33,676 nt of DNA from Bifidobacteriaceae bacterium (GTDB lineage: Bacteria; Actinomycetota; Actinomycetes; Actinomycetales; WQXJ01), in contig JAITJY010000318.1 of assembly GCA_031278675.1 (NCBI GenBank), forward strand, positions 1 to 33,676, read 5' to 3'. Of the stretch, positions 3 through 14,404 are shown piece after piece. The notes under the pieces are model-generated. The model searched no databases. It saw only the letters and a list, made by a program, of their open reading frames with translations, and had not been told where the DNA came from. The translations under genes and the position numbers were made by a program. How positions within the stretch are numbered: the stretch's first letter is position 1; the number at the start of each line of letters is the position of its first letter.

Positions 3-29
3 CCGGAAGCGGCGCAGGGCTCTGACCTG
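3..29. repeat. Copy 1 of a 27-bp direct repeat (25/27 identical to 161-187)
   Basis: ccggaagcgGCgcagggctctgacctg versus ccggaagcgATgcagggctctgacctg, offset 158 bp, downstream of the operon end. Confidence 0.8.
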
Positions 30-160
30 GGGAAACACGTCCGGGGGGAGTTCGCGGTGATCACCCGGGCTGGGGTGGGGGGCGCGGAAGTCTACACTTC
101 TCGTCGCGGGCGGGAGAAGTGTGGGAATCGTCACGCCGACCTGCGTCGGCGGCTACCGGG

Positions 161-187
161 CCGGAAGCGATGCAGGGCTCTGACCTG
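161..187. repeat. Copy 2 of the 27-bp direct repeat
   Basis: See copy 1 (3-29). Confidence 0.8.
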
Positions 188-239
188 CGGAGACGCGGGC
201 TGGAGTGGGCTGGGGCCGTGGCCCCGGGAGAGCGAGGGG

Positions 240-1307
240 TTACGGGCGGGCGAAGCGCCAGAGTTCGTAGGAGCCCCCGGAGCCTGGGCCGGAGTACTGG
301 GGGGCGCCGCCCACCAGGGCCTCGCGGCCTGCCGGTTCGCGCCACAGCTCCAAATGTTCGGCCGGAGTGGGCAGGTCGTCGGTCGAGCCCTGGAAACCGG
401 AACGGTATTCGCCTGAAGCGTCCGGGAGCAGCCCCAGGTAGCGGAGTTCCACCTCGTCGGTGAACCCTTGGGCGAACAGGTCACGGGCGTAGGCCCAGAG
501 ATTCGGGAAGTCGACCACCCGCGGCGCCGCCCCGACCTTCGCGATCAGCCCCGGCCGGTACCCGCGGTCGAACGAGGACAACGTCTGGAACAGACGCACA
601 TCAGAGTCGGTGATCGCGTCACCGAACAAGTACCGCCGCGAAGCCAACCTGAAGTCCAAGTCCGCCAAGCGGGCCAGGAACACGTTCTTCGCAGCCTGGG
701 CCGCCCCTTGACTGGTCGCGAAGATCACCTTGTAGGTCCCGTTGTTGATGTCGTCGAACAACTGCTGGTTCAGCAGGTCGATCTCCTGCCGCAACGCGAC
801 CGGGTACAGATCAGGCGCGCCATCAGCGTGCCACGGCGACCACACCGTCTCCCAGTCCAGACTGAGAGTGTGGTAGTTGTTGGACACGACCCGGCCCGTC
901 TCGATGTCGATCACGCTGGGCGACGTTCCCCGCCCCTGATAGGCGGGATCGGTGGCGCGGTAAAGAGCGTTGAGCCGGTCCACGCCGAGGCGCTCGGCCA
1001 CACCGCCAGGGACCCGATCGATGACCCAGCCATCCTGGTCGCGGCCGTCCAGGATCTCTTGGGGCACGGCATCGTCGGGGATGCCCAGCAGACGCAGCAC
1101 TATCCGTTGGCGCCGGGCCCAGCCGCAGCCGGGGCAGCCCAACAGGTGATAGCGGCCCGGCTCTGGCGGGATTTGGCCGTCGCCCCAACCGAACCGTGCC
1201 GGGAAGTAGTTGCGTTGGCGCCGGAATCCGCCGTCGGGCGTCTGTTCCACCGAGGTTTCAGGGAACGCCGGCGGGCTGTCGGGGCGCTCGTTGTCAGTCG
1301 TGGTCAT
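240..1307 (-). CDS. Xi-class glutathione S-transferase / glutathionyl-hydroquinone reductase family protein (YqjG/ECM4-like), paralog with CPGCGWA active-site variant
   Basis: 355-aa ORF. RYHLLGCPGCGWARR aligns residue-for-residue with the RYHLYVSxACPWAHR catalytic segment of YqjG-type GSTs. GST_C-like helices are present (RRYLFGDAITDSDVRLFQTLSSFD, FPNLWAYARDL). The ATG at 1307 is preceded by AAGGAG with a 6-nt spacer, and that SD overlaps the upstream TAA stop. Confidence 0.85.
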   Translation of the reverse strand: MTTTDNERPDSPPAFPETSVEQTPDGGFRRQRNYFPARFGWGDGQIPPEPGRYHLLGCPGCGWARRQRIVLRLLGIPDDAVPQEILDGRDQDGWVIDRVPGGVAERLGVDRLNALYRATDPAYQGRGTSPSVIDIETGRVVSNNYHTLSLDWETVWSPWHADGAPDLYPVALRQEIDLLNQQLFDDINNGTYKVIFATSQGAAQAAKNVFLARLADLDFRLASRRYLFGDAITDSDVRLFQTLSSFDRGYRPGLIAKVGAAPRVVDFPNLWAYARDLFAQGFTDEVELRYLGLLPDASGEYRSGFQGSTDDLPTPAEHLELWREPAGREALVGGAPQYSGPGSGGSYELWRFARP

Positions 1308-2436: not shown

Positions 2437-4163
2437 TCGTCGATCCAGACGGTGGTGGCCCCAGCGGGCTGTCCCGTGGCGTCGAGGGTCGTGATGCCGT
2501 GCACCGAAACCTTGGCGGCCCACGTGTCCTGAGTCTGATAGAGCGGCAACACATATGCCTTGTCCAGCGTCACATAGCTCTGCAGCGTGGTGTAGGCGGC
2601 CAAACGCTTGGCGGAGTCGGTGGTGAAACGGCCCTCGTCGATCAGTTTCTCCAGCGTGGAGTCGTTGAACTTCCCGCGGGCGATGTACCCCCGCGCCGGG
2701 TCAGACGCGTAATAGAGCAGGTCAAGACCCGTCACCGGGTCGGGCCCGCCGTACGAGTTGTCGAAGATCTCGTAGTCGTTGGCAGCCGCGCGCTCGGATT
2801 CGGTGCCTAGGTCGACGATGTCGTAGACGTAGTTGATCCCGACGTTCTGTTTGAGGGCCGCACCGATCGCGATGGCCAATTGATCCCGTGACTCACGCAC
2901 GAAGTCAGCGCCTGAGACCGCCCGGACCGTCAGCCTCTCGCCGTTCTTGATCCGGAAGCCGTCGCTGTCGCGTTCAGTCCAGCCCGCCTCGTCCAGTAGG
3001 CGGTTCGCCTCGTCGATGTTTGTCGCCGCCCACCCGATCAGCGACTGGTCCGGGAACGGGCCGATGTCGGAGATCGGCAGCCAAGCCCTCTCATAAGCGC
3101 CCTGATAGATGGTGTTCAGCAACGCCTGATAGTCAGCGCCGAGGATGAAGGCTCGGCGCACGTTCTCGTCGTCGAACGGCGTGCGAGACACATTCAGGTA
3201 ATAGGCGTAAGGCAGTCCGCCCACAAAAGTGCGGTGGTACTGGAATGAGTCGGAGTCCGCGAAGACCGACACGTCGAGGGGCTGTATGTCGGAGGCGACG
3301 TCGACCTGGCCCTGCTGCAACGCCCCGGTGCGAGTGGAGCCTTCAGCGAAGGTCCGGTAGGTCACCTTGTCGAGGTAGGCCTGAGGGTGGTCCGCCCGGT
3401 CAGCTGTCGCCGCCCAGGCGTAGTCGGCCCGCTTGACAAGCACCAACTCGGTGTTGGCCGTGAACGATTCGATGGTGAACGGACCCACCCCAGCCAATTC
3501 GGGGCCACCGGATTCCAACACGTCCTGCGGCAACGCCAGCGAAGCTGGCGAAAGCGGCGTGGACTGCCGGGACGAAAGGAAGATCAGGAACTGGATGTCC
3601 GGTTCGGTCAGCTTGAATTCGATGGTCTTGGAGTCGACCTTGCTGTAGCTGTCCAAGAACCTGAGCCCACCGGGTGGCGAGGTCAGATAAACGCCGTCGA
3701 GCAGCTTGTCGATGGTCGCGACAACCGCGTCCGCGTCCAGCGCCGCGCCGTCGGAGAACGTGACGCCGTCCCGGAGGGTCAGGGTGTAGGTCAGGCCGTC
3801 CTCTGACTGCGTGTAACCCTGCGCCAACCATGGCTGGAACTTGCCTTCCGCGTCCTGGAAAAGGTACGTGGAGAACACGTTGAACAGGATCGGATTGGCC
3901 TTGTCTTGGCCGTTGCGATGCGGGTTGACCGTAGCGAGTTTGGTTTCGATCGCCCAGATCAGCTCACCGCCGTCACGCGGTGTGGCCGAAGCGCCGGCGC
4001 CCGTCGTGGGCGTGGCGGGCTTGTCGGCCGAACCGCAGCCCGCCAGGACGGTGGCAGCGAGGGCCACCGTCATGATGGCGGCTAGCGGGGCGGCGCGCCG
4101 GTGGCGCCGCGGCGCGCGGCGCCACCTCGATCCGGTTTGCGATGCTTCGGTGGGAACTGACAT
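2433..4163 (-). CDS. ABC transporter substrate-binding lipoprotein, family 5 (peptide/nickel/glutathione, DppA/OppA/GsiB-like)
   Basis: 576 aa. Arg-rich N-terminus followed by the lipobox LAGC (TVLAGCGSADK). Family-5 SBP size and motifs (NPHRNGQDKANP, LVLVKRADYW, YYLNVSRTPFDDENVRRA). AAGGAG lies 6 nt upstream of ATG 4163. Confidence 0.9.
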   Translation of the reverse strand: MSVPTEASQTGSRWRRAPRRHRRAAPLAAIMTVALAATVLAGCGSADKPATPTTGAGASATPRDGGELIWAIETKLATVNPHRNGQDKANPILFNVFSTYLFQDAEGKFQPWLAQGYTQSEDGLTYTLTLRDGVTFSDGAALDADAVVATIDKLLDGVYLTSPPGGLRFLDSYSKVDSKTIEFKLTEPDIQFLIFLSSRQSTPLSPASLALPQDVLESGGPELAGVGPFTIESFTANTELVLVKRADYAWAATADRADHPQAYLDKVTYRTFAEGSTRTGALQQGQVDVASDIQPLDVSVFADSDSFQYHRTFVGGLPYAYYLNVSRTPFDDENVRRAFILGADYQALLNTIYQGAYERAWLPISDIGPFPDQSLIGWAATNIDEANRLLDEAGWTERDSDGFRIKNGERLTVRAVSGADFVRESRDQLAIAIGAALKQNVGINYVYDIVDLGTESERAAANDYEIFDNSYGGPDPVTGLDLLYYASDPARGYIARGKFNDSTLEKLIDEGRFTTDSAKRLAAYTTLQSYVTLDKAYVLPLYQTQDTWAAKVSVHGITTLDATGQPAGATTVWIDE

Positions 4164-4201: not shown

Positions 4202-6013
4202 TCAGCCGTTGCGGTGGCTTTGGGCTTGGTCGGGTAGCTGGGGGATGGCCGCGATCAGCGACTTGGTGTAAGGGTGGAGCGGGTTGGCGAACACGTCTTG
4301 CACGTCGCCTGATTCGACGACGTGGCCTTGAGTCATCACAAGCACGTGGTCCACCAGATGGTGGACCACGCCCAGATCGTGTGAGATGAACACCAACGCT
4401 GTGCCTGCGGCCTTGTTGAGATCGTCCAGCAAGTCAAGGATCTGCGCCTGGATGGACACGTCTAACGCGGAGACCGGCTCGTCGCAGACTATGACCTTGG
4501 GCCGCAGCGCCAAGGCCCGTGCGATCGCCACGCGCTGGGCTTGGCCCCCTGACAGGGTTCGCGGGTGGCGGCGCAGCAAGTCCCGCTCCAAATCGACCAG
4601 CGTGGCCAAGTCTTCGACTCGCGCCGCCACATCGGCCTTGTCGGCCGTGCCACGCAGCGGTTCAGCGATCACCTCGGCCACCGTGTATCTGGGGTCGAAG
4701 GACCCGACCGAGTCCTGCGAGATGAACTGCGCCGCGTGCCGCAATGCCACCCGTTGGTCTTTCGGTTGGCCGGTCCACGGCCGCCCTTGGACCAGGACTT
4801 GGCCTGAATCCGCTGTCTCCAAGCCGAGCAGGAGGCGGGCCAGAGTTGATTTGCCGGACCCGGATTCGCCCACCACGCCCAGCCTGTCGCCCGGGAAGAC
4901 TTCAAGCGACACATTCACCACCGCCCGCCTGAGCCCGCCGCCGGGCAGCGGAAACGTCTTGGTCAGGGATTCGGCGGCCAGGACCGGCGCGGCGCGGGTC
5001 CCCGCTTCGCGGGCCGCGGGCGCGGGTGTGACGCCAGCCGCGTCCACGTGATCCGGGCCGCCCCCCGGGGATGCGACGCTCACCGTCCCGCTATCCGGCG
5101 CGGCGGGCCGGCCCGTCGCCGGGCCCGCCAGCCGCGCCGCCTTCGCCGAATCCACCCGCGCGTCGCTGAGCCGCCGCCCGCGTGACGCCGCCGAAGGCAC
5201 GGCGGCCAGCAACCCCTTGGTGTAAGGGTGCTTGGGATCACCCAACACCTGCGCGGGTGATCCCTCTTCGACGGCGACGCCATCGCGCAACACGACTATG
5301 TGGTCGGCTAAAGCCAAGACCACAGCTAGATCGTGCGAGATCATGAGCAGAGCGGTGCCGCGCGCCGCCCGCTCGCGCAGGAGCGCCAGAATCTGGGCCT
5401 GAACAGTCACATCAAGGGCGGTGGTCGGCTCGTCGACGATCAACAGCGCCGGATCCGCCGCTAAAGCTGAGGCGATCAGCGCGCGTTGGCGCAGCCCCCC
5501 GGACAGCTGATGCGAATACTGGCGTGCCCGCACCTGAGGATCCGGTATGCCCACGTCCGCGAGCAACTCGTGGACCCGGCCAAGGCGCTCGCGGCGCGGC
5601 GCCGTGCGGTGGATCCGCAGCGGCTCCGCCACCTCCCGTGCCACAGTCCGCAGCGGATCCAACGACGTCAACGCGTCCTGGAACACGAACCCGATCCGGG
5701 CGCCGCGCAGTTCCCGCCAGCGCCGCTCGGACAACCGGACGGAATCGTGCCCGAAGATCTCGAAGCGGGAGGCGCTGACCTGGGCGTGTTCGCCTGCCAA
5801 ACCCACCAACGTCCGGGCGGTGACGGACTTGCCGGACCCAGACTCGCCCACCAAAGCGGTGACCCGTCCCGGCAGGATGTCGAAGCTGAGGCCCCGCACC
5901 GCCCGGACGGCGGGCCGGCCCGGGAAGGTGACGGCGAGGTCGCGGACGCTGACGAGGGGTTTGAGCGCGGTCGCGGCGGACGGCATCGGGCGCTGGGTGG
6001 TCAGGAGGCTCAC
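4202..6013 (-). CDS. Fused double ABC transporter ATP-binding protein (DppD-DppF / GsiA-like)
   Basis: Two complete cassettes are present. Walker A occurs twice (GESGSGKSVT and GESGSGKSTL), signature twice (LSGGLRQR and LSGGQAQR), Walker B twice (LLIVDEPTTALD and VIVCDEPVSALD), and the HPYTK tail twice. The start is placed at GTG 6013, which overlaps the permease TGA (GTGA, 6010-6013). ATG 5986 is the alternative. The track ORF (to 6487) would overlap the permease by 478 nt. Confidence 0.85.
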   Translation of the reverse strand: MSLLTTQRPMPSAATALKPLVSVRDLAVTFPGRPAVRAVRGLSFDILPGRVTALVGESGSGKSVTARTLVGLAGEHAQVSASRFEIFGHDSVRLSERRWRELRGARIGFVFQDALTSLDPLRTVAREVAEPLRIHRTAPRRERLGRVHELLADVGIPDPQVRARQYSHQLSGGLRQRALIASALAADPALLIVDEPTTALDVTVQAQILALLRERAARGTALLMISHDLAVVLALADHIVVLRDGVAVEEGSPAQVLGDPKHPYTKGLLAAVPSAASRGRRLSDARVDSAKAARLAGPATGRPAAPDSGTVSVASPGGGPDHVDAAGVTPAPAAREAGTRAAPVLAAESLTKTFPLPGGGLRRAVVNVSLEVFPGDRLGVVGESGSGKSTLARLLLGLETADSGQVLVQGRPWTGQPKDQRVALRHAAQFISQDSVGSFDPRYTVAEVIAEPLRGTADKADVAARVEDLATLVDLERDLLRRHPRTLSGGQAQRVAIARALALRPKVIVCDEPVSALDVSIQAQILDLLDDLNKAAGTALVFISHDLGVVHHLVDHVLVMTQGHVVESGDVQDVFANPLHPYTKSLIAAIPQLPDQAQSHRNG

Positions 6014-6840
6014 GCGGTCCGCCTTTCGTAGCGGCGCTGCAGGTGGCGGCCGACCACCGTGGCCGCGATCACCACTGAGGTGATGGCGACCCCCGGGAAC
6101 ACGCCGGTCCACCAGGCGTTGCGCAGGTAGTTGCGGGATTCGGACAACATCAGGCCCCATTCGGCGGCGGGCGGCTGCGGCCCCAGCCCCAGGAATGAGA
6201 GCCCGGAGGAACCGATGATCGCGCTGCCTAAGCCGATCGTCGCCACCACGGGAAGCGCCCCGAGCGCATTCGGGATGACGTGCCGCACCGCGATGCGCGC
6301 CGGGCTGACCGCGTAGGTTTTGGCCTGGTCCACGTACAAGGACGTGGCCGCCACACGCGCCTGGGAACGTGACAGCCGGGCGTAGATCGGCAGGCCGCCC
6401 AACCCGAGCGCGAGTATCAGGTTCCAGATCCCAGGGCCCGTGAACGTGATCAGGAGCAGCGCCAGCAGCACGCCCGGGAACGCGCACAGCACGTCGACCG
6501 CCCGCGAGATCACCTGATCGAGCCAGCGCGGCCCCAATCCCGCGAACCCGCCCAAGGCGACCCCGGCCAAAGCCGCCAAGACCGTCGCTCCCAGCCCGAT
6601 CAGCAGGGAATACCGGGCGCCATAGACCACCCTGGTGTAGACGTCCCGGCCCTGCAGGTCGGTGCCGGCGATGTGTCGCGCGCTGGGCGCCAGGTTCGAT
6701 TGGGCCGGATCGGCGTACAGCGGGTCCGCGTTGGTCAGCAGCTCCGGCCAGGCGGCGGCCAAGGCAGCCAAAGCCAACACCGTCCCAGCCACGATCGCGC
6801 CCCAGGGAGCGGCCCGGAGCGCCCTCAGTTTGTCCGTCAT
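6010..6840 (-). CDS. ABC transporter permease (DppC/GsiD-like)
   Basis: 276 aa and polytopic. It has a binding-protein-dependent transport (EAA-loop) region, YVDQAKTYAVSPARIAVRHVIPNALG. AAGGAGAGG lies just upstream of ATG 6840. Confidence 0.9.
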   Translation of the reverse strand: MTDKLRALRAAPWGAIVAGTVLALAALAAAWPELLTNADPLYADPAQSNLAPSARHIAGTDLQGRDVYTRVVYGARYSLLIGLGATVLAALAGVALGGFAGLGPRWLDQVISRAVDVLCAFPGVLLALLLITFTGPGIWNLILALGLGGLPIYARLSRSQARVAATSLYVDQAKTYAVSPARIAVRHVIPNALGALPVVATIGLGSAIIGSSGLSFLGLGPQPPAAEWGLMLSESRNYLRNAWWTGVFPGVAITSVVIAATVVGRHLQRRYERRTA

Positions 6841-6850
6841 GACCTCTCCT

Positions 6851-7870
6851 TCAAGCGCTGGCCGGCCCGCGGAGGCGGGGGTCGAGCAGGATTCCGAATA
6901 TGTCGACCGCCGTCGAGGCGATCACGTACGCGGCGGTCGTGACGATCGCCGCGCCGAGGATCAACGGCACGTCCTTGACCGTGACCGCCGAGACCGCGAC
7001 CTGCCCCAGCCCGGGCCGGCCGAAAACCGTTTCCACGAACACCGCGCCGCCCAACAGCGAACCGATCGTCAACCCCGCCACGGTGATGCCCGGCAGGGTG
7101 GCGTGCCGCAGCGCGTGGTGGTAGCGCACCCCGGCGTGGCCGAGCCCCCGGGTCCGCGCGGTCAGCGCGAAGGGCTGTTCCATGGCCCGGTCGATCCCTT
7201 CGCTCAACACTTGGGCGAAGTAGAACCCGCACGGTATGGCGATGGCCGCGACCGGCAAGACCAGCCCTTGCCAACTGTCCGCGTCCACCACCGAGAACCA
7301 GCCCAGCTGGAACGAGAAGATCGCCAGGAGCACAATCGCCAGCCAGAACGGCGGCGCGGACAGGAACACCAATTGCACGGCGTTCGAGACGGGCCGAACC
7401 CCCCGCCGCTTGGTGGTCGAGATGTAGGCCACCACAAACCCGATCGCCAGCATCCCGAGCCCGGCCAGAGCCGCGAGCTTGAAAGTCGGGGCCATGGCCT
7501 CGGCGATCAGCTCCCCCACGGGCCGGCGCAGCACGTAGCTGGTGCCGAAATCACCCGACGGGATGCGCTGCAGGTACGTCAAGTACTGCGCCCAGACCGG
7601 CTGGTCCAGACCCCAGCGCTCCACCACGGCGGCCCGCGCCAGCGGGTCGTCGCGGTTCTCCCCGAGCAGCAAGGAAACCGTGTCCCCTGGGGCCAGGTGC
7701 ACCGCGAGGAAGGTCACGGTGACGGCCGCCCACAACACGAACACGGCGGTCGCCAGCCGGATCGCGATCAGCCGGGCCGCGGCCGACCGGCGCCGCCTCC
7801 GACTGGTGGGCGCCTCGTCTGCGCAGCCGACCACAGCTACGGCCGGGTCTAGGCAGAAGTGGACGGTCAT
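6851..7870 (-). CDS. ABC transporter permease (DppB/GsiC-like)
   Basis: 339 aa. LAVHLAPGD near the N-terminus and ARTRGLGHAGVRYHHALRHATLPGITV (EAA loop) are typical of DppB-type permeases. ATG 7870 overlaps the upstream TGA (ATGA, 7867-7870). Confidence 0.85.
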   Translation of the reverse strand: MTVHFCLDPAVAVVGCADEAPTSRRRRRSAAARLIAIRLATAVFVLWAAVTVTFLAVHLAPGDTVSLLLGENRDDPLARAAVVERWGLDQPVWAQYLTYLQRIPSGDFGTSYVLRRPVGELIAEAMAPTFKLAALAGLGMLAIGFVVAYISTTKRRGVRPVSNAVQLVFLSAPPFWLAIVLLAIFSFQLGWFSVVDADSWQGLVLPVAAIAIPCGFYFAQVLSEGIDRAMEQPFALTARTRGLGHAGVRYHHALRHATLPGITVAGLTIGSLLGGAVFVETVFGRPGLGQVAVSAVTVKDVPLILGAAIVTTAAYVIASTAVDIFGILLDPRLRGPASA

Positions 7871-9720
7871 CTCGCCTCCGTTTGATCGGGGTGGGTCGCC
7901 AGGTGGCCCGCCTTCCCGGACGCGACCAGCGCCTGGATGCGCGGGAAGTCCCTGAGATCGGCTGGGTAGGCCTCGAGGACCGCGTGGAGCGCCTGGTCAG
8001 CGGCGGTCGGGTGCCCGCCGGCCAGGTGGGGTCGGCTGCTCAGCCGCGCCTCCAACCAGCCGAGCCGCGCCCAGAACAGCCGCCATCGCGCCAGTTGATC
8101 GTTCGGGCTGCTGGGTGTCAGCAGGTCTTCGAGTGGGTCCAGCAAGTCGTGCACGATTCCGTCCACTAGCGCGGCCGGGTCTTGTCCGGTCCGCTCGTGT
8201 GGGCCGGTTGGGCCGGTTGGCGCGGCGGTGGGCGGTGGGCTGCTGGCCAGGGCGGCGATCCGCGCGCGGGCGCGTTCCAGGCGGACCCGCGCTGCGGCCG
8301 GGTCCGGGCCGGGCCAGTCGGCCGGATAGGCGAGGACGGGGACGGCGGGGTCCCGGGGTGGTTTGCGGCGGCGTAGCTCGGCGCGGGGGGTGAGCCAGGC
8401 GGCCCTCACATCGGGGACCCCGGGGACGGGCGGGAGGGGGCCGTACGGTTCGGGGTAGACGGCATCGGCGTCCGGCTCAAGGCCGGCGGCTTGCCGTTGC
8501 GCTGGTGAGAGCCCCGCCAAACTGAGCGTCAACCGCGCCTGACGCCACAGGTGGGGCCAATCCGCCACGCCGCCCAGGGCGGAGAAACCGGCGCGCCAGC
8601 CCAAATCGTAGGCGAGCAGGAAACTGAACAGGTAGATGTCGGCTCGTCCCGGGCGGGTCCCGGCGAGGAACGGGCCGGCGCTGGCGGCCAAGCGTCGCTC
8701 TAGCGTGTCCAGTTTGGCGAAGTAGAGGCGGACGGCGGCTTGCCTGGCCTCGGTCGTCTCGGACCACAGCGCGGCTAGGGCGCCACCGCCGAGTTCGGCG
8801 GCGACACGTTGGGCCGACTCGGCGGCGCCCGGGGAATCCGGGGCCAACCAGCCGCGGGCCGCCAACTCGCGTGTCACCGATTCGGCGCGGGCGAGCGGGA
8901 CGGAGGGCACGGCATCGGGCACGAAGGCGCCCGACTGGTCGATGCCGCCGGGCGGGCGGGGCGGCCAGAGCGAGCGGTCCGGGCGGCGCGACCAGGGCGG
9001 CCCCGCGTTGGGCTGGCGCTGGGCACGGCTGGCGGGCGGGGGCGAGCCGGGAAATGGGGCGGGGAGCGGGTCGGCGCGCTGGTCGGGGATGTGGTAGATG
9101 AAGGTGAGCAGACGCTCGCCGTATTCGGAGACGATGGCCGTCTCGCGTTCCGGGCGGCGGACGAATCCTTTGCGGTAGTAAAGCTTGTGGGCGGCCGACA
9201 TTTGCGGGCTGGAATTGATCTCGATGACACGGAAACCTTGGATCCGGGCCAATGCGATGGCGTGATCCGTGAGGGCCGAACCGATGCGCAAACCGCGGCC
9301 CGAGGGGTGGACGGCGAGCACTGAGAAGGTGAAGTGGTCGGCAGTCCAGTATTCGAGCCGGGGAGTCAGGACCACGCCGAGGACCTGCCCCGCCTCGCTG
9401 GCCGCGATCCAAATGTGCCAGGTTTCGGCGCGCTGGCGGAGTGTCCGCAGGCCCTGTTCGTATTCCTCCGCCACCCAGCATCCGGTGGTGAACGCGGCCA
9501 CCAGTGTGTCCTCGGCGGCGGGCAGTTCCGCAGGCTGAGCTTCCCTGATCACCAGGCCTTCGGGGAGCCGCGGGGCCGCGGCGGGTGGGATCGCTCTTGC
9601 GGGCGGGGCGGGCGCGATGTCTTGGGGGATGTGGGCTGTGTCTTGGGGAACGGAATCGTGCGCGCGGGGCGTGACGGGCGGGCGGACGTGACCTCGCAGA
9701 ATCGGCGATGTGTGGCTCAT
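7867..9720 (-). CDS. GNAT family N-acetyltransferase fused to two GST C-terminal-like helical domains
   Basis: 617 aa. The GNAT core spans about aa 60-215 (HIWIAASEAGQVLGVVL, VLAVHPSGRGLRIGSALTDHAIALAR, AHKLYYRKGF). A Pro-rich linker follows. Two segments then resemble the helical domain of the neighbouring Xi GSTs: FLAGTRPGRADIYLFSFLLAYDLGWR..WPHLWRQA, and HLAGGHPTAADQALHAVLEAY..FPRIQALV. No thioredoxin-fold or CPxA cysteine motif is seen. Confidence 0.7.
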   Translation of the reverse strand: MSHTSPILRGHVRPPVTPRAHDSVPQDTAHIPQDIAPAPPARAIPPAAAPRLPEGLVIREAQPAELPAAEDTLVAAFTTGCWVAEEYEQGLRTLRQRAETWHIWIAASEAGQVLGVVLTPRLEYWTADHFTFSVLAVHPSGRGLRIGSALTDHAIALARIQGFRVIEINSSPQMSAAHKLYYRKGFVRRPERETAIVSEYGERLLTFIYHIPDQRADPLPAPFPGSPPPASRAQRQPNAGPPWSRRPDRSLWPPRPPGGIDQSGAFVPDAVPSVPLARAESVTRELAARGWLAPDSPGAAESAQRVAAELGGGALAALWSETTEARQAAVRLYFAKLDTLERRLAASAGPFLAGTRPGRADIYLFSFLLAYDLGWRAGFSALGGVADWPHLWRQARLTLSLAGLSPAQRQAAGLEPDADAVYPEPYGPLPPVPGVPDVRAAWLTPRAELRRRKPPRDPAVPVLAYPADWPGPDPAAARVRLERARARIAALASSPPPTAAPTGPTGPHERTGQDPAALVDGIVHDLLDPLEDLLTPSSPNDQLARWRLFWARLGWLEARLSSRPHLAGGHPTAADQALHAVLEAYPADLRDFPRIQALVASGKAGHLATHPDQTEAR

Positions 9721-9987
9721 TGGGGCTTTTCCTAGGCGAAAGGCGCGACGCCACGGCGGCAGGCGGCGCGCTAGGAGTGGACGGGTGAAGCGTCAGCAGC
9801 TAAAGCGCATTCGCGCGCTCGGCATTCGGTTCAACCAATTGGCCACGCGGTCATTGTGGTAGCCGCGCGATCGAGGGCGCAAGGAATGTAAAGATGGCCA
9901 CGCTCCCCGCGGCGCCGGCTTAGCCCGCGCCGGCCGTGCGACCTGCGGCCCAATGGCTCTGGCCCTGCGGGCCGTGCCGCTGCAGCG

Positions 9988-10027
9988 GGCCCGTGGCACT
10001 CAAGACTGCCACACGGCAGTGCGGGCC
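9988..10027 (-). terminator. GC-rich nested or alternative hairpins downstream of the 895-aa gene (possible factor-independent terminator without a U-tract)
   Basis: Outer stem ggcccg (9988-9993) pairs with cgggcc (10022-10027). Two inner hairpins are mutually exclusive: gtggca (9993-9998) with tgccac (10007-10012), and ctgcc (10006-10010) with ggcag (10015-10019). No T-tract is present. Confidence 0.25.
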
Positions 10028-10139
10028 GAACTCGCAAGAACGCTGCGGCGTCCACCTGAGACTGGAAACCGGCCGAACAGCCCCTCGCGGAACCGTGCTC
10101 CGACCCTCACCCGCGTTCTGTGGCACCCTCAGGATCGGG

Positions 10140-12827
10140 TCAGGTCGTCGCGACCTGGCCCGGGCCTCCCGTAAACGCTCCTTGGCGCATCCAATGCTCA
10201 AGACAGGTGTGGGCGACTTGGGCCGCCACCAATGCGGCCACCTCTTGACGACTCGCCTTGGTCGCAGGATCCGCGTCCTCGCTGGCGTCGGCGAGGTCGC
10301 AGACAGCTTTGAAACAGTAGAAGGGGATCGGACCGCCACCGAATCGCGAGCAGGAGGAAGCGATGGCGTCGGCCTCCATGTCCAAAGCGATTGGCGAACC
10401 GCCTTTTTGTTCGCACTCCACGGCGAGACCGTCGCGCTCGCTAGGCGTCTTGACTTTGGTGGCCGTTGTTATGAAAGTGCCGGCTTTGACCGTCGGCAGA
10501 AACGGACCCTGCACCTCAGGGGCCGTGAATCTTGAAAATGTGGACGAGTCCGGCATCAGGAGAAGTGGGCGACGGTGGACCTCTGCCAAGTGAGTTTCGC
10601 CGCTCATCCATCCGCCGTCCCAGGTGGAGTCGGCGACACACACATCGTAGAGATGAACCGACTCGGGGCGAGCCGAGCCGCAGATGCCCAGCGCAACCAC
10701 GGCCTGGACGCCATTATGGCTATGAATAGCAGCGGTGACCGCCGTAGCTGCCTCTTGTGGATTTTGGTGTCCGTGCAGATGGATAACCTCATGGCTTTCC
10801 AGCTTGGCGGCCTGCCACAATAATCCATACCCTTCGGCGGACGGCCGCCCGCTCCCCTTGAAAACTTCAAGCACCGCGTTGCGCTCGTATTCATTGCAGG
10901 TGTAGAGCAACACCTTAGGAGCGGGATCCGCTGGCACCTCAGCAGGGAAACCCTCACTGCTGTCTTGAAGGGTGGCGTGGCACCGTTTGCCGGCCAGGAC
11001 CTCGCGGAAGAGGTTCAGCCCAGTGCTGCCGAATACCTCCAATGCGACGGGGACCAGCTCCGCCTGGAATGCGGCGGTCTCTTTGGCGATGAGACTGAGG
11101 TCCGGCTCGGTCAAGGCCTTTGCGATTCGAGTGGCCAGGCCATTGAAGTCATGGACACCGGGCCGTTGGTCGGTGTCGTCTACCAGGAGGATTCCCGCTG
11201 GGCTGACGGGTTCTTGAGGTTCGATGGATGCTTCGGGCTTCATGCGCGTGAAAGCCCAGGTGAGCGCCATCAGCCCAGCGTCACGTAGAGCGTTCTCAGC
11301 GGCAGTGTGGTTGTGCTGGAGCCAGGACGCTGTGGGCAGCTGGGCCGTTGACGCCGGCGGTTCAAACTCACCATCACAGATTAATTCCCGTTCGTACGGG
11401 TTATGGCATCCGGCATTTTCCAGGAGTGTGCCTAGATGCACCTTGAGCGCGCGTCGCAGCGCGGCGAACTCGCCCACCTTAGCGCTGTCTGTCTCGCCGG
11501 CCGAGTACTTGTCCCAACAATCCTTGATGCCGCTGAGCCGACGGCGCACATCGTCACGGCTGTGCACAAAGACAGCGCGCCTGCCCAACAATCGCCTGTC
11601 AAACCAATGCTCGCATTCGGACCGCACGCCTGAGGACCATGCGCTGGAGTCGTAGAACGGTCGGAAAACAATCAAATGCGGCACGTGTTCGACGATGTAA
11701 TGGTCGCGGGAAGATATGTCGAAGAAGACGGCGTCGCGGACACCTCGCGCTGTCTCGCGGGCGGCAGTTCTGGCTGCCTGGGTTGGCTGGGCGCTAGGGG
11801 GCAGGAAGAAATTGGTGCGATCTTGTTGTTCGGGAGGGTATGGATAGTCCGTTGAAGCTTCGTCCAATGCGCGATCGGGCCACCGTCGAGACAGGTACAC
11901 GTCTCCGGCTGGGTCCTCAACGAAACGCAGCTCGTCTATGGCTGTGGGGCAGACCAGCGGGATTTCCCGTGCGCGAAGCGCTGCGTGCAATTGCATGGTA
12001 TCGTCGACGAGACCCGGGGGCCATGTGGCCAGTGTGGTCGCGTCTCGTTCGAAGTGCGAATTGGCTTGGTTGCTAGTTCGCAGGCTCTTAATCGGGTGGG
12101 ACAGATAGGCTGCCGTCGCGGTTCGCTGGTTCAGTGCCAATCTGAGGGTGGCGAAGCCCTGCTTTAATCCAAGTGGCGTGACAGGCAGCGGAAGCCCAGG
12201 TTTCCCTAGATTTACTGCGACGGTGTCCGCGAAGTGCATTTCCGTGCGGCGCCAGTTCCGAAGCACTCGGAGGTTCTCGGCCAGGCCGCGGGAGACGTCA
12301 GCCTCGGCGTCGACGACTCCGTCGAGGGCGCTGATCAGACGGCCGTCGGCTTGAGAACTCTGTCGGTCGAACAGGTAGTCTCGCTGCGCAAGGCGTGTCC
12401 ACACGTCATAGATGTCGTCGAGGAGCACCACAACCTGGGTTATGCCAAGTGCGGCAAGCGGCTCGGTCTGGACGGCTGACAATAGTTCGCGCGTGCCGCT
12501 GTTGTACCAGCTAAGGTGTGTCAGCAGCACGCCGGGCACGTCAGCGGTCAGGGTTGCGAAGGTCTCGCCAGACTCCTCGACGATCTCTCGCCACACCTGT
12601 CGCAACTGAGCACGGGGTCTGTTTCGGAGGGCGATTTCAAGGTTGGCTGGCCGACCTCTGAGCCTTGCGAGCAGCAGGTCCTCCACGTCGACCACCTTGA
12701 AGCGGCCCTCTGCCTCGAGCTTGGCCGCGACGACGCGAGGCGAGCATGCATAGAGGCCGCAGAGGAGTGTGACCACGCGTGGCGGCAACTGGGGCGAAGG
12801 GTCAGCGCCCGAGTCTGGGGCGATCAT
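10140..12827 (-). CDS. Large multidomain protein: degenerate P-loop kinase-like N-terminal region, TIR/nucleoside 2-deoxyribosyltransferase-like middle region, C-terminal PNP_UDP_1 (purine nucleoside phosphorylase / MTA nucleosidase superfamily) domain; candidate conflict-system protein
   Basis: 895-aa uninterrupted ORF in a lower-GC stretch. The C-terminal aa 638-880 carry PNP/MTAN hallmarks: first strand KVLLYTCNEYERNAVLEVF, glycine loop VVALGICGSA, and IALDMEADAIASSC (DME motif). The middle region has AAYLSHPI, PLVCPTAIDE and SRDHYIVEHVPHLIVFRPFYDSSAWSSGVRSECEHW. The N-terminus has VVTLLCGLYACSPRVVAAKLEAEGRFKVVDVEDLL (adenylate-kinase-like strand-loop-helix lacking GK[ST]) and VVVLLDD. Confidence 0.75.
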   Translation of the reverse strand: MIAPDSGADPSPQLPPRVVTLLCGLYACSPRVVAAKLEAEGRFKVVDVEDLLLARLRGRPANLEIALRNRPRAQLRQVWREIVEESGETFATLTADVPGVLLTHLSWYNSGTRELLSAVQTEPLAALGITQVVVLLDDIYDVWTRLAQRDYLFDRQSSQADGRLISALDGVVDAEADVSRGLAENLRVLRNWRRTEMHFADTVAVNLGKPGLPLPVTPLGLKQGFATLRLALNQRTATAAYLSHPIKSLRTSNQANSHFERDATTLATWPPGLVDDTMQLHAALRAREIPLVCPTAIDELRFVEDPAGDVYLSRRWPDRALDEASTDYPYPPEQQDRTNFFLPPSAQPTQAARTAARETARGVRDAVFFDISSRDHYIVEHVPHLIVFRPFYDSSAWSSGVRSECEHWFDRRLLGRRAVFVHSRDDVRRRLSGIKDCWDKYSAGETDSAKVGEFAALRRALKVHLGTLLENAGCHNPYERELICDGEFEPPASTAQLPTASWLQHNHTAAENALRDAGLMALTWAFTRMKPEASIEPQEPVSPAGILLVDDTDQRPGVHDFNGLATRIAKALTEPDLSLIAKETAAFQAELVPVALEVFGSTGLNLFREVLAGKRCHATLQDSSEGFPAEVPADPAPKVLLYTCNEYERNAVLEVFKGSGRPSAEGYGLLWQAAKLESHEVIHLHGHQNPQEAATAVTAAIHSHNGVQAVVALGICGSARPESVHLYDVCVADSTWDGGWMSGETHLAEVHRRPLLLMPDSSTFSRFTAPEVQGPFLPTVKAGTFITTATKVKTPSERDGLAVECEQKGGSPIALDMEADAIASSCSRFGGGPIPFYCFKAVCDLADASEDADPATKASRQEVAALVAAQVAHTCLEHWMRQGAFTGGPGQVATT

Positions 12828-12863
12828 TTTGGGGGAGGCGTTGAGTTCAGCGCACAGCTGCCG

Positions 12864-13244
12864 CTAGCGGCTGCACTCTGCGATGTGCCTCTTGATCTCG
12901 CTCGATCCAACGAATCTCTGGCGTTCTTGGAGGATCAGCAGCGACGGGCGGCCTAACGTCGGGTCATAATCGAGGAAATACGGAAGGCGTGCGCGGTCAA
13001 GCAGGTCAGCCAACTCGTCCGTCTCCTGGTTGGGCGGCCCGCCAAGGATCGCGTACGTTGTGTTCAGGTAGGCCCTGCGCGACTCTGCGCTGGCCATCAT
13101 GGTCGCGAACCCGTTCGGTTGGATCGCAGGCACTGCTGTTGGCATTGGTGTCCCTTGTGTTGTCTCTTGTGCTCCGGGTCCCGCCATCATATCTAGCGTC
13201 TCGGAGCCGATGCATGTAAGCGTAGCGGGAGCCTCTGCACTCAT
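12864..13244 (-). CDS. Hypothetical small protein upstream of the 895-aa gene (start uncertain)
   Basis: The ORF is open from 13478 (GTG). That start lies inside the divergent galE remnant, so I place it at the first ATG (13244). ATGs at 13190 and 13100 are alternatives. The last ~75 aa (YAILGGPPNQETDELADLLDRARLPYFLDYD...RPSLLILQERQRFVGSSEIKRHI) have glutaredoxin/NrdH-like topology but no CxxC. It uses A/T-ending codons (TTA, AGA, CAA, GAA, TAT) like the 895-aa gene. A 36-nt gap separates it from that gene. Confidence 0.35.
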   Translation of the reverse strand: MSAEAPATLTCIGSETLDMMAGPGAQETTQGTPMPTAVPAIQPNGFATMMASAESRRAYLNTTYAILGGPPNQETDELADLLDRARLPYFLDYDPTLGRPSLLILQERQRFVGSSEIKRHIAECSR

Positions 13245-13256
13245 GGCAGAGGTGGC

Positions 13257-13293
13257 CGCGAGAGTCGCGCCCGCGAGAGTCGCGCCCGCGAGA
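13257..13293. repeat. 15-bp tandem repeat, 2.5 copies (cgcgagagtcgcgcc); each unit is itself a small palindrome (cgcga-gag-tcgcg)
   Basis: Read directly: 13257-13271 and 13272-13286 are identical, followed by the partial copy cgcgaga (13287-13293). It lies 12 nt upstream (minus-strand sense) of ATG 13244. Confidence 0.9.
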
Positions 13294-13433
13294 CGGAGGG
13301 CAGGGCCGCGCGTTGGGGCGCGGATCAGTCGAAAGCCGTCATACCGCGGGAGACACGCAGCCCAGGCCGCGGTGTCCGGCGGGGCCCCGCTGTCCAGGAA
13401 CTGGGGGGCGTGGGGTCGTAGCTTGCGTTGGGC

Positions 13434-14404
13434 ATGGTGATCTGAGTGACCGGCGGGACTGGCTATGTTGGGGCCCACATTGTGCGGGGCACGATCTCGT
13501 GGCGGTCGATCGCTCGAACAGATTGGCGGGCCGCGTCGGCGGTGCCAGGCTCGTTCAGCTTGACCTGGCCGACGGCTCCACGTCGTCCCAGCTTGAGGCG
13601 GCGCTCAGTGGTTGCGACGGCGGTGGTCCACTCCGCGGCTTGCAAGCAGGTAGGCGAGCCGGTGGAACGACCCGCCCACTACTACCAGCAGAACGTCGGC
13701 GGGACAGCGAATCTGCTGCTGGCGATGGATGCGGCCGGCGTTGGCAAGCTGGTCTTCTCCTCGGCTGCCGCCGTATATGGCCAGCCGGGCGCCGAGAGGA
13801 ACCGTGATGATGCCGATCTAGCCCCGATCAGGCCGTACGGTCACATTAAGCTGGCCTGCGAGTGGACAGTTCGGAATGCGGCCAGGGCGTGCGGCTGGGC
13901 AGCGGTCAACCTGAGGTCCCCTAGCGTCGCCGGCGCGGGGTGGGACGATCTGACGATCTGGGTGACTGTGTGGCGCTGAACCTGATCCCGACGGTGTTGC
14001 AAAGACTCGCCGACCGCCGCCGCCCTGCGGTTTTCGGGGTCGATTACCCCACCCCGGGCGGCGCCTGCGTTCGCGGTTTTGTCCGCGTGGAGGATCTGGC
14101 CAGTGCCCACGTCGCCGGTTTAGAGTACTCGGACCGCGGTGAGCGACTGTTCGATGTCTTCGACGTTGGCCCTGCCGTGGGTCATTCGGTGCGCGAGGCG
14201 ATCGACGCGATCGGGAAGGCGACGGGCCTGGACGTGACTCCTGATGACGAACCGCGACGGGGGAAAGGTGACCCAGCTATTCTGATCGGTGACGTTGGCC
14301 GGATCGAGCGGGTCTTCGGCTGGAAAGCGCGGCACGGCCTGACCTCGATCGTCGATTCCGCTTGGCGGGCGTGGCAGACGGGCCCCAGACGCTTCGCAGT
14401 TTGA
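13434..14404 (+). pseudogene. galE: UDP-glucose 4-epimerase (GalE) pseudogene: premature stop plus at least 3 frameshifts
   Basis: ATG GTG ATC TGA GTG ACC GGC GGG reads M V I * V T G G T G Y V G A H I V, so there is an in-frame TGA at codon 4 (13443-13445). GalE-like segments alternate between two reading frames. TGGTGYVGAHIV is in the frame of 13446. GHDLVAVDRSN..ARLVQLDLADG is in the frame of 13313. VVHSAACKQVGEPVERPAHYYQQNVGGTANLL..KLVFSSAAAVYG..PYGHIKL is back in the frame of 13446. NLIPTVLQ..AVFGVDYPTPGGACVRGFVRVEDLASAHV..GDPA..FGW is in the frame of 13940. Confidence 0.85.

Follow-up and report, generated by a model that had tools for sequence, protein, structure and literature searches.

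What kind of system is encoded by a gene that joins three apparently nucleotide-related regions in one polypeptide? The question is raised by a 33,676-bp stretch of DNA (the window), the complete contig of a Bifidobacteriaceae metagenome-assembled genome (MAG), in which such a protein of 895 aa is encoded. An original prediction, made from the sequence alone, read the protein as a fusion of a kinase-like domain, a TIR-like or nucleoside 2'-deoxyribosyltransferase (NDT)-like domain and a PNP nucleosidase, and proposed it as a defence or conflict protein. Our analysis leads tentatively, with confidence a little short of an even balance, to a reading of the locus as a two-gene conflict module that is horizontally mobile and belongs to the toxin-antitoxin (TA) or abortive-infection type. 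The large protein would destroy nucleotides by N-glycosidic cleavage and a 93-aa partner would control it.

The first 635 residues of the large protein belong to an orphan family. An exhaustive profile search of 1.84 billion representatives retrieved 1,243 clusters at E<=1e-3, of which 554 reach E<=1e-30. The family core corresponds to aa ~17-440 of the query, and most members are standalone proteins of 520-620 aa, ~580 aa being typical. Seven relatives were found in a word-indexed homolog search, among them P0002, a paralog encoded in the same MAG, and five ~580-aa proteins without PNP. Conservation and fusions were counted in the best 154 of the 1,243 clusters, to which the family counts given below refer. 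Pairwise identity among these divergent members is 20-30%, and ~25 polar residues are invariant or nearly so. The invariant and near-invariant positions are D137, D138, D141, W192, R193, K222, Y241, S243, H244, R250, P294, D298, E299, R301, R315, W316, R374, D375, R389, P390, G400, V401 and E404; judged from the alignment, this pattern of conservation is enzyme-like. A PNP domain is fused in three clusters only (the query, P0002 and P0017), one member carries an N-terminal Ser/Thr kinase and one a C-terminal AAA-like region, leaving >95% of the members without an appended effector. The module of aa 1-635 is one widespread, mostly standalone family and the PNP domain is a rare add-on to it, a relation missed by the original prediction. 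No sequence match to this module was found in Pfam, NCBIfam, PADLOC, PHROGs or PDB, and the literature search returned no description of a kinase-like plus NDT-like family or of the gene pair. The suggestion that this domain order is not that of a described system thus held.

The two fusion proteins without PNP differ in their appended regions. P0130 (928 aa; loci L016/L017, 10001-12787) has its Ser/Thr protein kinase at the N-terminus and its partner gene downstream (12845-13129). P0152 (886 aa; L018, 10001-12661) ends in an extension with weak AAA-ATPase similarity (E ~1e-3) instead of PNP, and a large trypsin-TPR protein is encoded nearby. In one Candidatus Aldehydirespirator genome (L011) the family gene lies in two overlapping open reading frames (ORFs; 9857-11011 and 10957-11913), which suggests a frameshifted pseudogene or a sequencing error.

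The partner gene lies upstream of the large gene in the same orientation, its end separated from the large gene by 36 nt. The maximal ORF at this position spans 12864..13478, and its true start was placed at 13145 by alignment to the partner of P0017, the third PNP fusion. With our own gene calling at 14 homolog loci, a co-oriented ORF of 75-120 aa was found directly upstream of nearly every family member. Seven of these small ORFs share homology among themselves and align with the C-terminal ~85 residues of 12864..13478 (blastp E 1e-6 to 4e-10), and the hidden Markov model (HMM) of the type-1 partner matches the window partner at E 1.5e-26. A second sequence type occupies the same slot in other clades; hhalign connects the two types (prob 68%, P 4.6e-5). 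The partner HMM was iterated, 31 metagenomic loci were added and 8,023 ORFs of 54 loci were scanned. Matches were obtained at 37 of the 54 loci, every one adjacent to the family gene and co-oriented with it, and none was found elsewhere among the ORFs scanned. Thirty of them lie directly upstream of the family gene and seven directly downstream, the latter in a minority of clades (L003/L052, L013, L016, L021, L046, L050); gene order is not fixed within the family. In the clade L033-L042 a third type of small ORF takes the slot and is linked to the combined partner profile (prob 63%, P 7e-5). Divergent small ORFs likewise fill the slot at the full-length loci that the HMM did not match. The remaining loci without a partner HMM match are truncated contigs or weak matches. 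Since the partner is conserved and always adjacent, the real unit is a two-gene module, and at 37/54 loci a small co-oriented gene is kept beside the large one as in type II TA pairs. The original prediction had noticed the small ORF, which proved to be a gene with homologs at other loci, and had missed that it is, on the evidence of these homologies, a conserved component.

Profiles of both partner types found no match in Pfam or among PDB sequences, and no PADLOC model matched the partner. A glutaredoxin/NrdH-like fold, an impression gained from the pattern beta-alpha-beta...P-x-h...G...I, found no support, as PDB and Pfam profile searches returned no thioredoxin-fold match. A tandem repeat of CCGCGAGAGTCGCGC lies ~110 nt upstream of the partner start and may, speculatively, be an operator. 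Because of this duplication, the spurious long ORF 12864-13478 contains the repetitive 'TLAGATLAGATLA'. A promoter and terminator scan of the region gave matches at chance level.

At the N-terminus of the large protein, an adenylate-kinase-type domain lacking GK[ST] had been proposed, and both parts of that proposal were upheld. The predicted structure of aa 1-635 (model 1; predicted TM score (pTM) 0.73) was compared with PDB by Foldseek. The top 35 matches were archaeal adenylate kinases (E 7e-6 to 6e-4, prob 1.0; ~205 aligned columns, TM on target 0.5-0.68), followed by dephospho-CoA and shikimate kinases, and aa ~18-220 show the three-layer alpha/beta fold of nucleoside monophosphate (NMP) kinases. 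The Walker A motif GxxxxGK[ST] with its catalytic lysine is present in 0/154 family members. The lysine position is Leu/Ile/Val throughout, in a P-loop of the consensus h-h-h-h-x-A-P-S-G-T-G-L-S, and the query P-loop, CGLYACSPR, is eroded beyond this consensus. The Walker-B-like hhhhDD is 100% conserved (D137 and D138 each 154/154), DDIYD is invariant and WR..E (192-196) is conserved (W192 154/154, R193 153/154). Searches with kinase profiles (ADK, AAA_17/18/33 and similar) gave no Pfam or NCBIfam match, one member reaching AAA_18 at E 0.069 only. The domain thus resembles adenylate and other NMP kinases in its fold and in the hhhhDD strand end, but differs from them in the family-wide lack of the Walker-A lysine and of any match to a Pfam kinase model. 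The family is therefore not a member of a kinase family, and the domain, kinase-like in fold, appears from its sequence unable to act as a conventional kinase.

When the profile of aa 1-635 was run against PDB, plant limonene and camphene synthases were the only matches (E 0.17-0.35). These matches rest on the family-invariant string hhhh-DDIYD-(M/V)-Y/W-x-R-L, which hardly differs from the metal-binding DDxxD helix that plant monoterpene synthases carry (...VIDDIYDVYGTL...). Kinship with terpene synthases was rejected; the likeness is a short-motif coincidence, because DDIYD follows a beta-strand in the kinase fold.

The middle domain was modelled by AlphaFold over aa 208-447 with 120 sequences (model 2; predicted local distance difference test 88, pTM 0.83). 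Foldseek against PDB gave no significant neighbour (best E 0.18). The matches of highest probability were all of NDT fold, namely the Leishmania and Chroococcidiopsis NDTs (6qai and 8pqr), MilB (4ohr) and DNPH1 (8rqd), at prob 0.63-0.80, E 0.25-0.5 and TM on target 0.47-0.52. In BFVD, N-deoxyribosyltransferases and related folds were matched (prob <=0.98, TM on target <=0.60, E 0.03-0.3). TIR structures were far behind (prob 0.16-0.23, E > 1), and SIR2 matches were also far weaker than those to NDT. No Pfam, PHROG or PDB sequence-profile match linked the domain to NDT, and hhalign of the 154-sequence domain alignment with human DNPH1 (sequence verified) gave a probability of 0.7% in an inconsistent register. 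An NDT-like fold is thus plausible from the model, and unproven. TIR is not favoured; as an identity for the domain it was rejected, with structural matches far below those of NDT and no match to a Pfam TIR family. Of the TIR/NDT Rossmannoid pattern proposed in the original prediction, the NDT-like half is favoured.

The invariant polar residues of the middle domain are K222, Y241, S243, H244, R250, D298, E299, R301, R315, W316, R374, D375, R389 and E404. From the model we infer that Y241 (154/154), D375 (154/154) and E404 (153/154) occupy the topological positions of Tyr24, Asp80 and Glu104 of DNPH1. Either E404 or E406 had been named as catalytic Glu. Being conserved where E406 is variable, E404 is a good putative catalytic candidate and E406 is not. 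In the model, the domain shares with NDT, DNPH1 and MilB, its best structural neighbours, the same beta-alpha-beta order. With DNPH1 it further shares a Tyr in strand 1 (Y-L-S-H-P-I here, Y-F-C-G-S-I in DNPH1), an S-x-G-V-x-x-E motif after the third strand (SSGVRSE and SLGVGYE) and an Asp in the preceding helix. Unlike NDT enzymes, it contains two large insertions (aa ~256-272 and 300-349) bearing the motifs PTAIDELR and RWP, which are invariant and specific to the family, it is fused to a kinase-fold domain, and it has no significant sequence or profile match to them. An NDT-like effector of retron-Ec86 (Eco1) depletes NAD+ (PMC13276650). The NDT-type fold of that effector resembles the middle domain, but no reverse transcriptase or multicopy single-stranded DNA (msDNA) accompanies the latter. 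The helical region at aa ~448-635, the C-terminal part of the family module, retains only L497 as a conserved residue and obtained no family or structure assignment.

The C-terminal PNP_UDP_1 (PF01048) was the sole domain found by Pfam in the large protein (aa 681-873, E 7e-12, 45.7 bits against a cutoff of 25.1). NCBIfam gave weak sub-cutoff matches to futalosine hydrolase, HpnG and MTAN (28-33 bits against equivalog cutoffs of 125-169), and PDB MTANs match the domain at E 2e-3 with the ...EMEA... and ...SD(V/L)AD motifs aligned. The three PNP fusion proteins were aligned with what we take to be the sequence of E. coli MtnN, and the PDB MTAN alignments agree. The MTAN-type catalytic residues (E646/E648, E818 and D844) are kept in 3/3 fusion proteins, and the domain looks catalytically competent as predicted from these residues. 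The PNP_UDP_1 assignment and E818 of the original prediction were retained, whereas D816 was not; the equivalent of the catalytic Asp is D844. This residue corresponds to MTAN D197 and to D353 of DtcC, which was mutated there as D353A (bioRxiv 10.1101/2023.01.24.525353).

PNP domains serve as ATP-nucleosidase immune effectors in CBASS and Detocs (bioRxiv 10.1101/2023.01.24.525353). The protein resembles Cap17 (CBASS), DtcC (Detocs) and the NLR-like and pAgo PNP proteins in carrying a C-terminal PNP_UDP_1 on an unrelated regulatory N-terminus, but it lacks a SAVED, receiver or NLR sensor and a CD-NTase or histidine kinase partner. The only PADLOC model matched by the query PNP was PDC-M60C (E 7e-8), over the last ~70 residues of the domain. 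The likeness to PDC-M60 (component C) thus goes no further than the C-terminal third of this domain; neither the N-terminal module nor the partner has a PADLOC counterpart. The PNP domain of P0002 gave a weak match to the CBASS 'PN-superfamily effector' model (E 1e-5). MTAN and futalosine hydrolase are the nearest sequence relatives, with the Glu/Glu/Asp positions kept. The domain differs from them in scoring far under the equivalog cutoffs and in its setting, joined to a 635-aa module within a mobile islet that also holds a partner gene.

The complete catalytic set of the PNP domain bears on a different account of the protein, in which the kinase-like and NDT-like domains are dead sensors or regulatory pseudo-enzymes that gate PNP as the sole effector here. 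The output of standalone members would then lie elsewhere, for instance in the small partner or in oligomerisation. The missing Walker-A lysine, the eroded P-loop of the query and the finding that no NDT or TIR enzyme family is matched in sequence agree with this account, as do the varied appended domains (Ser/Thr kinase, AAA-like), which recall many sensor modules. We nevertheless consider it unlikely. More than 95% of the 154 members have no appended effector, and the module must therefore carry its own output. The invariant acidic/basic clusters DDxYD, D298-E299 and R374-D375, together with E404 at an NDT nucleophile-like position, suit an active site better than a ligand pocket.

The distribution of the family suggests a rare and mobile element. 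A scan of 185,579 species genomes with the PTAIDELRF block, its alignment limited to members carrying PTAIDELRF, found 11 loci only, in Acidimicrobiia, Mycobacterium, 'Hakubella', Acidobacteriota and Chloroflexota; the family is rare and phylogenetically patchy. The low-GC islet noted in the original prediction was confirmed, with GC ~0.61 over 10-12.5 kb of the window against 0.65-0.75 in the flanks, and GC at third codon positions (GC3) of 0.70 in the large gene against 0.77-0.91 in neighbouring genes. GC3 of the family gene is well below that of the flanks in the window and at L005, L006, L011 and L013 (0.62 for the pair against ~0.9 at L006; 0.50 against ~0.85 at L013). Integration signatures were sought in the window, and no tRNA and no convincing flanking direct repeats were found. 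The paralog P0002 (tag LBE08_12835; 10,296-bp contig) has 888 aa, is 46% identical to the query and contains a PNP domain too. Such a pair of diverged copies within one genome would be a typical feature of conflict genes that diversify.

Defence and mobility genes recur beside the pair at other loci. At L001 a complete-looking ubiquitin-like system (5322-8978; Prok-E2_E, ThiF E1, TCAD9/APH-like, BubE), followed by HTH_31, sits directly upstream of the partner and family genes. Other neighbourhoods hold a DEAD/ResIII helicase with DUF559, an MmeI-type fragment with an STK-LRR protein, or Eco57I/N6_Mtase with HTH_3. Downstream of the pair at L039 (~2490-3189) is a DUF4062 protein that matches PDB 10wc, 'KpSwz TIR/DUF4062', at E 9e-6; a 2026 preprint describes the DUF4062 domain as an immune NADase. 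P0130 is encoded on a conjugative or mobilisable element with a relaxase (Replic_Relax), TraG-D_C and DUF932. The 145 neighbours at 14 loci, counted without background correction, include four N6_N4 methylases, type III and IIG restriction-modification (R-M) genes, mad2, PD-T4-6-like kinases and HTH_31/M78, and Mu transposase or integrase genes too. The association with defence genes and mobile DNA is suggestive. At L035-L037 a conserved 605-aa gene lies directly downstream of the pair (7618-9432 at L036), its product starting with the motif 'VVFLSGAGIS'. A SIR2 identity, proposed from 'FLSGAGIS', was left unconfirmed, as a PDB phmmer search found nothing.

Several observations weigh against the conflict module proposed here. 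The family is absent from 72,556 plasmids, 50,697 phages and 2.9 M viral contigs (IMG/VR), and its N-terminal module matches no model of PADLOC-DB v2.0.0. In the window the pair is flanked on one side by an Opp-type ABC transporter and a GNAT-GST fusion gene, and on the other by a split epimerase at the edge of an exopolysaccharide (EPS) cluster, with no adjacent defence gene, and many neighbours at the other loci are housekeeping genes (enoyl-CoA hydratases, dehydrogenases). Immune PNP models lie no nearer to the PNP domain than do MTAN and futalosine hydrolase, its matches to PDC-M60C and to the NCBIfam families being of similar strength. In statistical terms the NDT assignment is weak, with Foldseek E >= 0.03, Pfam and PHROG searches that gave no match, and 0.7% in hhalign with DNPH1. 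Ligand binding by the kinase-fold domain of the query is uncertain, because its P-loop is more degraded than the family consensus.

The same distribution may be read in terms of a plain addiction-type TA pair, which would stabilise genomic islets or mobile elements without taking part in phage defence. The pairing of a conserved small gene with a large enzyme gene, its movement alone as a two-gene islet, the member on a conjugative element and the window copy without defence neighbours are in line with such a pair. Epsilon/zeta systems offer an analogy, in which a small antitoxin is paired with a P-loop-kinase-fold toxin that acts on a nucleotide-sugar or nucleotide. Here, too, a small adjacent partner gene accompanies a larger protein of P-loop-kinase fold. 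Zeta toxins are kinases and keep a canonical Walker A, whereas the lysine is lost here, and neither a sequence match nor a top-50 structural match to them was seen. The absence from the 72,556 plasmids, the placement of several loci among R-M, DUF4062 or ubiquitin-like defence genes, and the downstream partner of some clades, which is less typical of type II TA, make pure addiction an improbable explanation.

A metabolic role has also to be weighed. The protein could act in nucleoside or nucleotide salvage, or in the synthesis of a modified nucleoside or nucleoside antibiotic, by NDT-fold hydrolysis (as in MilB and BlsM) and PNP cleavage. MilB, DNPH1 and true NDTs are among the structural neighbours, the PNP domain is nearest in sequence to MTAN and futalosine hydrolase, and the window neighbours are metabolic or transport genes. 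However, no biosynthetic or salvage genes co-occur consistently, the tiny partner alone being conserved; the distribution is extremely patchy and rare, the genes lie in low-GC3 islets, the catalytic lysine of the kinase is lost, and the scores fall far under the NCBIfam equivalog cutoffs (e.g. 33 vs 125 bits). We regard this role as quite unlikely.

For the conflict module, the analysis bears directly on folds, conserved residues, the pairing of the genes and their distribution; catalysis, substrate, regulation and any immune role are inferred. The lysine-less kinase-fold domain would carry out no phosphate transfer. Its glycine-rich loop, present in most members, and the invariant DDxYD would bind the phosphate end of a nucleotide, and the domain would serve as a substrate clamp or an allosteric ligand site. 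In the NDT-fold domain, Y241/D375/E404, mirroring the Tyr/Asp/Glu of DNPH1 and NDT enzymes, would hydrolyse the N-glycosidic bond of a nucleotide or NAD-type molecule and thereby constitute the ancestral 'warhead' of the family. In the Bifidobacteriaceae clade a second warhead would have been appended, an MTAN/PNP-type nucleosidase that plausibly acts on (d)ATP or an adenosine nucleotide, like Cap17 and DtcC. The partner, as a neutraliser or trigger adaptor, would hold the enzyme inactive until the cell is infected or the element is lost. A role in defence or conflict is supported circumstantially by the gene pair, the patchy distribution, the islets and the defence and mobile neighbours. The exchange of appended domains among family members, and the immune precedents for PNP and NDT-like domains, also count in favour of the module.

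Instead of depleting a pool, the enzyme might cleave a nucleotide to set free a base or sugar-phosphate that serves as second messenger. PNPase and TIR/DRHyd/SLOG folds were predicted by Aravind and colleagues to serve conflict systems, as messenger generators (PMC7159879). The pair has no conserved receptor or effector gene beside it, however, and the characterised immune PNP and NDT-like domains act by depletion; signal generation is thus the least probable of the explanations considered, and very unlikely.

The boundaries of the large gene were examined as well. The ORF of the original prediction was confirmed in extent and lies on the minus strand, with a coding-type GC profile (GC3 0.70 against a GC2, at second codon positions, of 0.49) and with homologs in homolog and profile searches, and the motif positions quoted there all agree with the translation. 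The identical NCBI protein of the MAG, P0001, is annotated as an 818-aa hypothetical protein starting at codon 78. Judged from the alignment this start is too late, because the conserved family positions E49, P71 and R72 lie upstream of it. On the basis of the alignment with P0002, the true start may be the GTG at codon 18 (12776), which would give a protein of 878 aa. The features of the locus are collected in the table.

Table. Features of the two-gene locus in the window, with motifs of the large protein and the residues of known enzymes proposed as their counterparts.
Feature	Position in window	Strand	Residues of large protein	Putative counterpart	Basis
Large multi-domain gene	10140..12827	-	895 aa from ATG		ORF listing
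VVTLLCGLYACSP...			from aa 18
P-loop NMP-kinase (adenylate-kinase-like) fold, lysine-less P-loop	12168..12776	-	aa ~18-220		Foldseek, family alignment
DDIYD	12405..12419	-	aa 137-141
Rossmann-like domain, plausible NDT-like topology	11493..12164	-	aa ~222-445		AlphaFold, Foldseek
YLSHPI			aa 241-246 (Y241)	DNPH1 Tyr24
PTAIDE			aa 294-299
D375			D375	DNPH1 Asp80
SSGVRSE (S-S-G-V-R-S-E404)			aa 398-404; E404 and E406 present	DNPH1 Glu104 in S-L-G-V-G-Y-E (E404)
Mainly helical, poorly conserved linker to PNP	10923..11486	-	aa ~448-635		secondary structure of model 1
PNP_UDP_1 / MTAN-like nucleosidase	10188..10916	-	aa 638-880		Pfam PF01048, PDB MTAN alignments
YTCNEYE			aa 642-648	MTAN Glu12 (E646 / E648)
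GICGSA			aa 714-719
DMEAD			aa 816-820; D816 and E818 present	MTAN Glu174 (E818 in DMEA; M817-E818)
CDLAD			D844	MTAN Asp197 (D844)
Partner gene, 93 aa (MPTAVPAIQPNGFATMMAS...AYLNTT...)	12864..13145	-			homology to partners at other loci
Perfect 15-nt tandem repeat (CCGCGAGAGTCGCGC x2), internal dyad per unit	13256..13285	.			repeat search

Two of the window neighbours may be described more fully. The 617-aa protein encoded directly downstream of the large gene (7867-9720, minus strand) has a GNAT acetyltransferase domain at its N-terminus and a GST C-terminal-like domain in its centre, an unusual fusion. The NAD-dependent epimerase/dehydratase gene (13446-14404, plus strand) appears split into two overlapping ORFs (13446-13979 and 13940-14404), either as a frameshifted pseudogene or through an assembly error. 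It lies beside the partner gene in divergent orientation, at the edge of the EPS cluster, which contains a flippase and GT1/GT4 glycosyltransferases.

In its broadest form, the proposal is of a widespread undescribed two-gene immune or TA system, composed of a ~580-aa enzyme with a lysine-less, nucleotide-binding kinase-fold domain and a divergent NDT-fold N-glycosidase and of a cognate ~80-100-aa partner of a new family that would control the enzyme. The Bifidobacteriaceae version, with its NDT-like and PNP warheads, could deplete two pools, e.g. NAD+ or dNMPs together with ATP/dATP. We hold this form to be possible and, on balance, rather doubtful. In bacterial immunity, nucleotide depletion (by PNP, TIR, SIR2 or NDT-like enzymes) is a central theme, and it has eukaryotic counterparts. 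The family comprises >1,200 clusters outside the domain, defence and phage databases, with enzyme-like invariant residues and an obligate small partner. If it serves in defence or as a TA system, it would represent a new sensor/effector architecture, a new use of the P-loop-kinase fold without lysine and possibly a new substrate specificity of the NDT fold; if it is metabolic instead, it would still be a new enzyme family. The rare PNP fusion of this gut-associated Bifidobacteriaceae MAG would be a natural 'double warhead', whose PNP activity is easy to assay.

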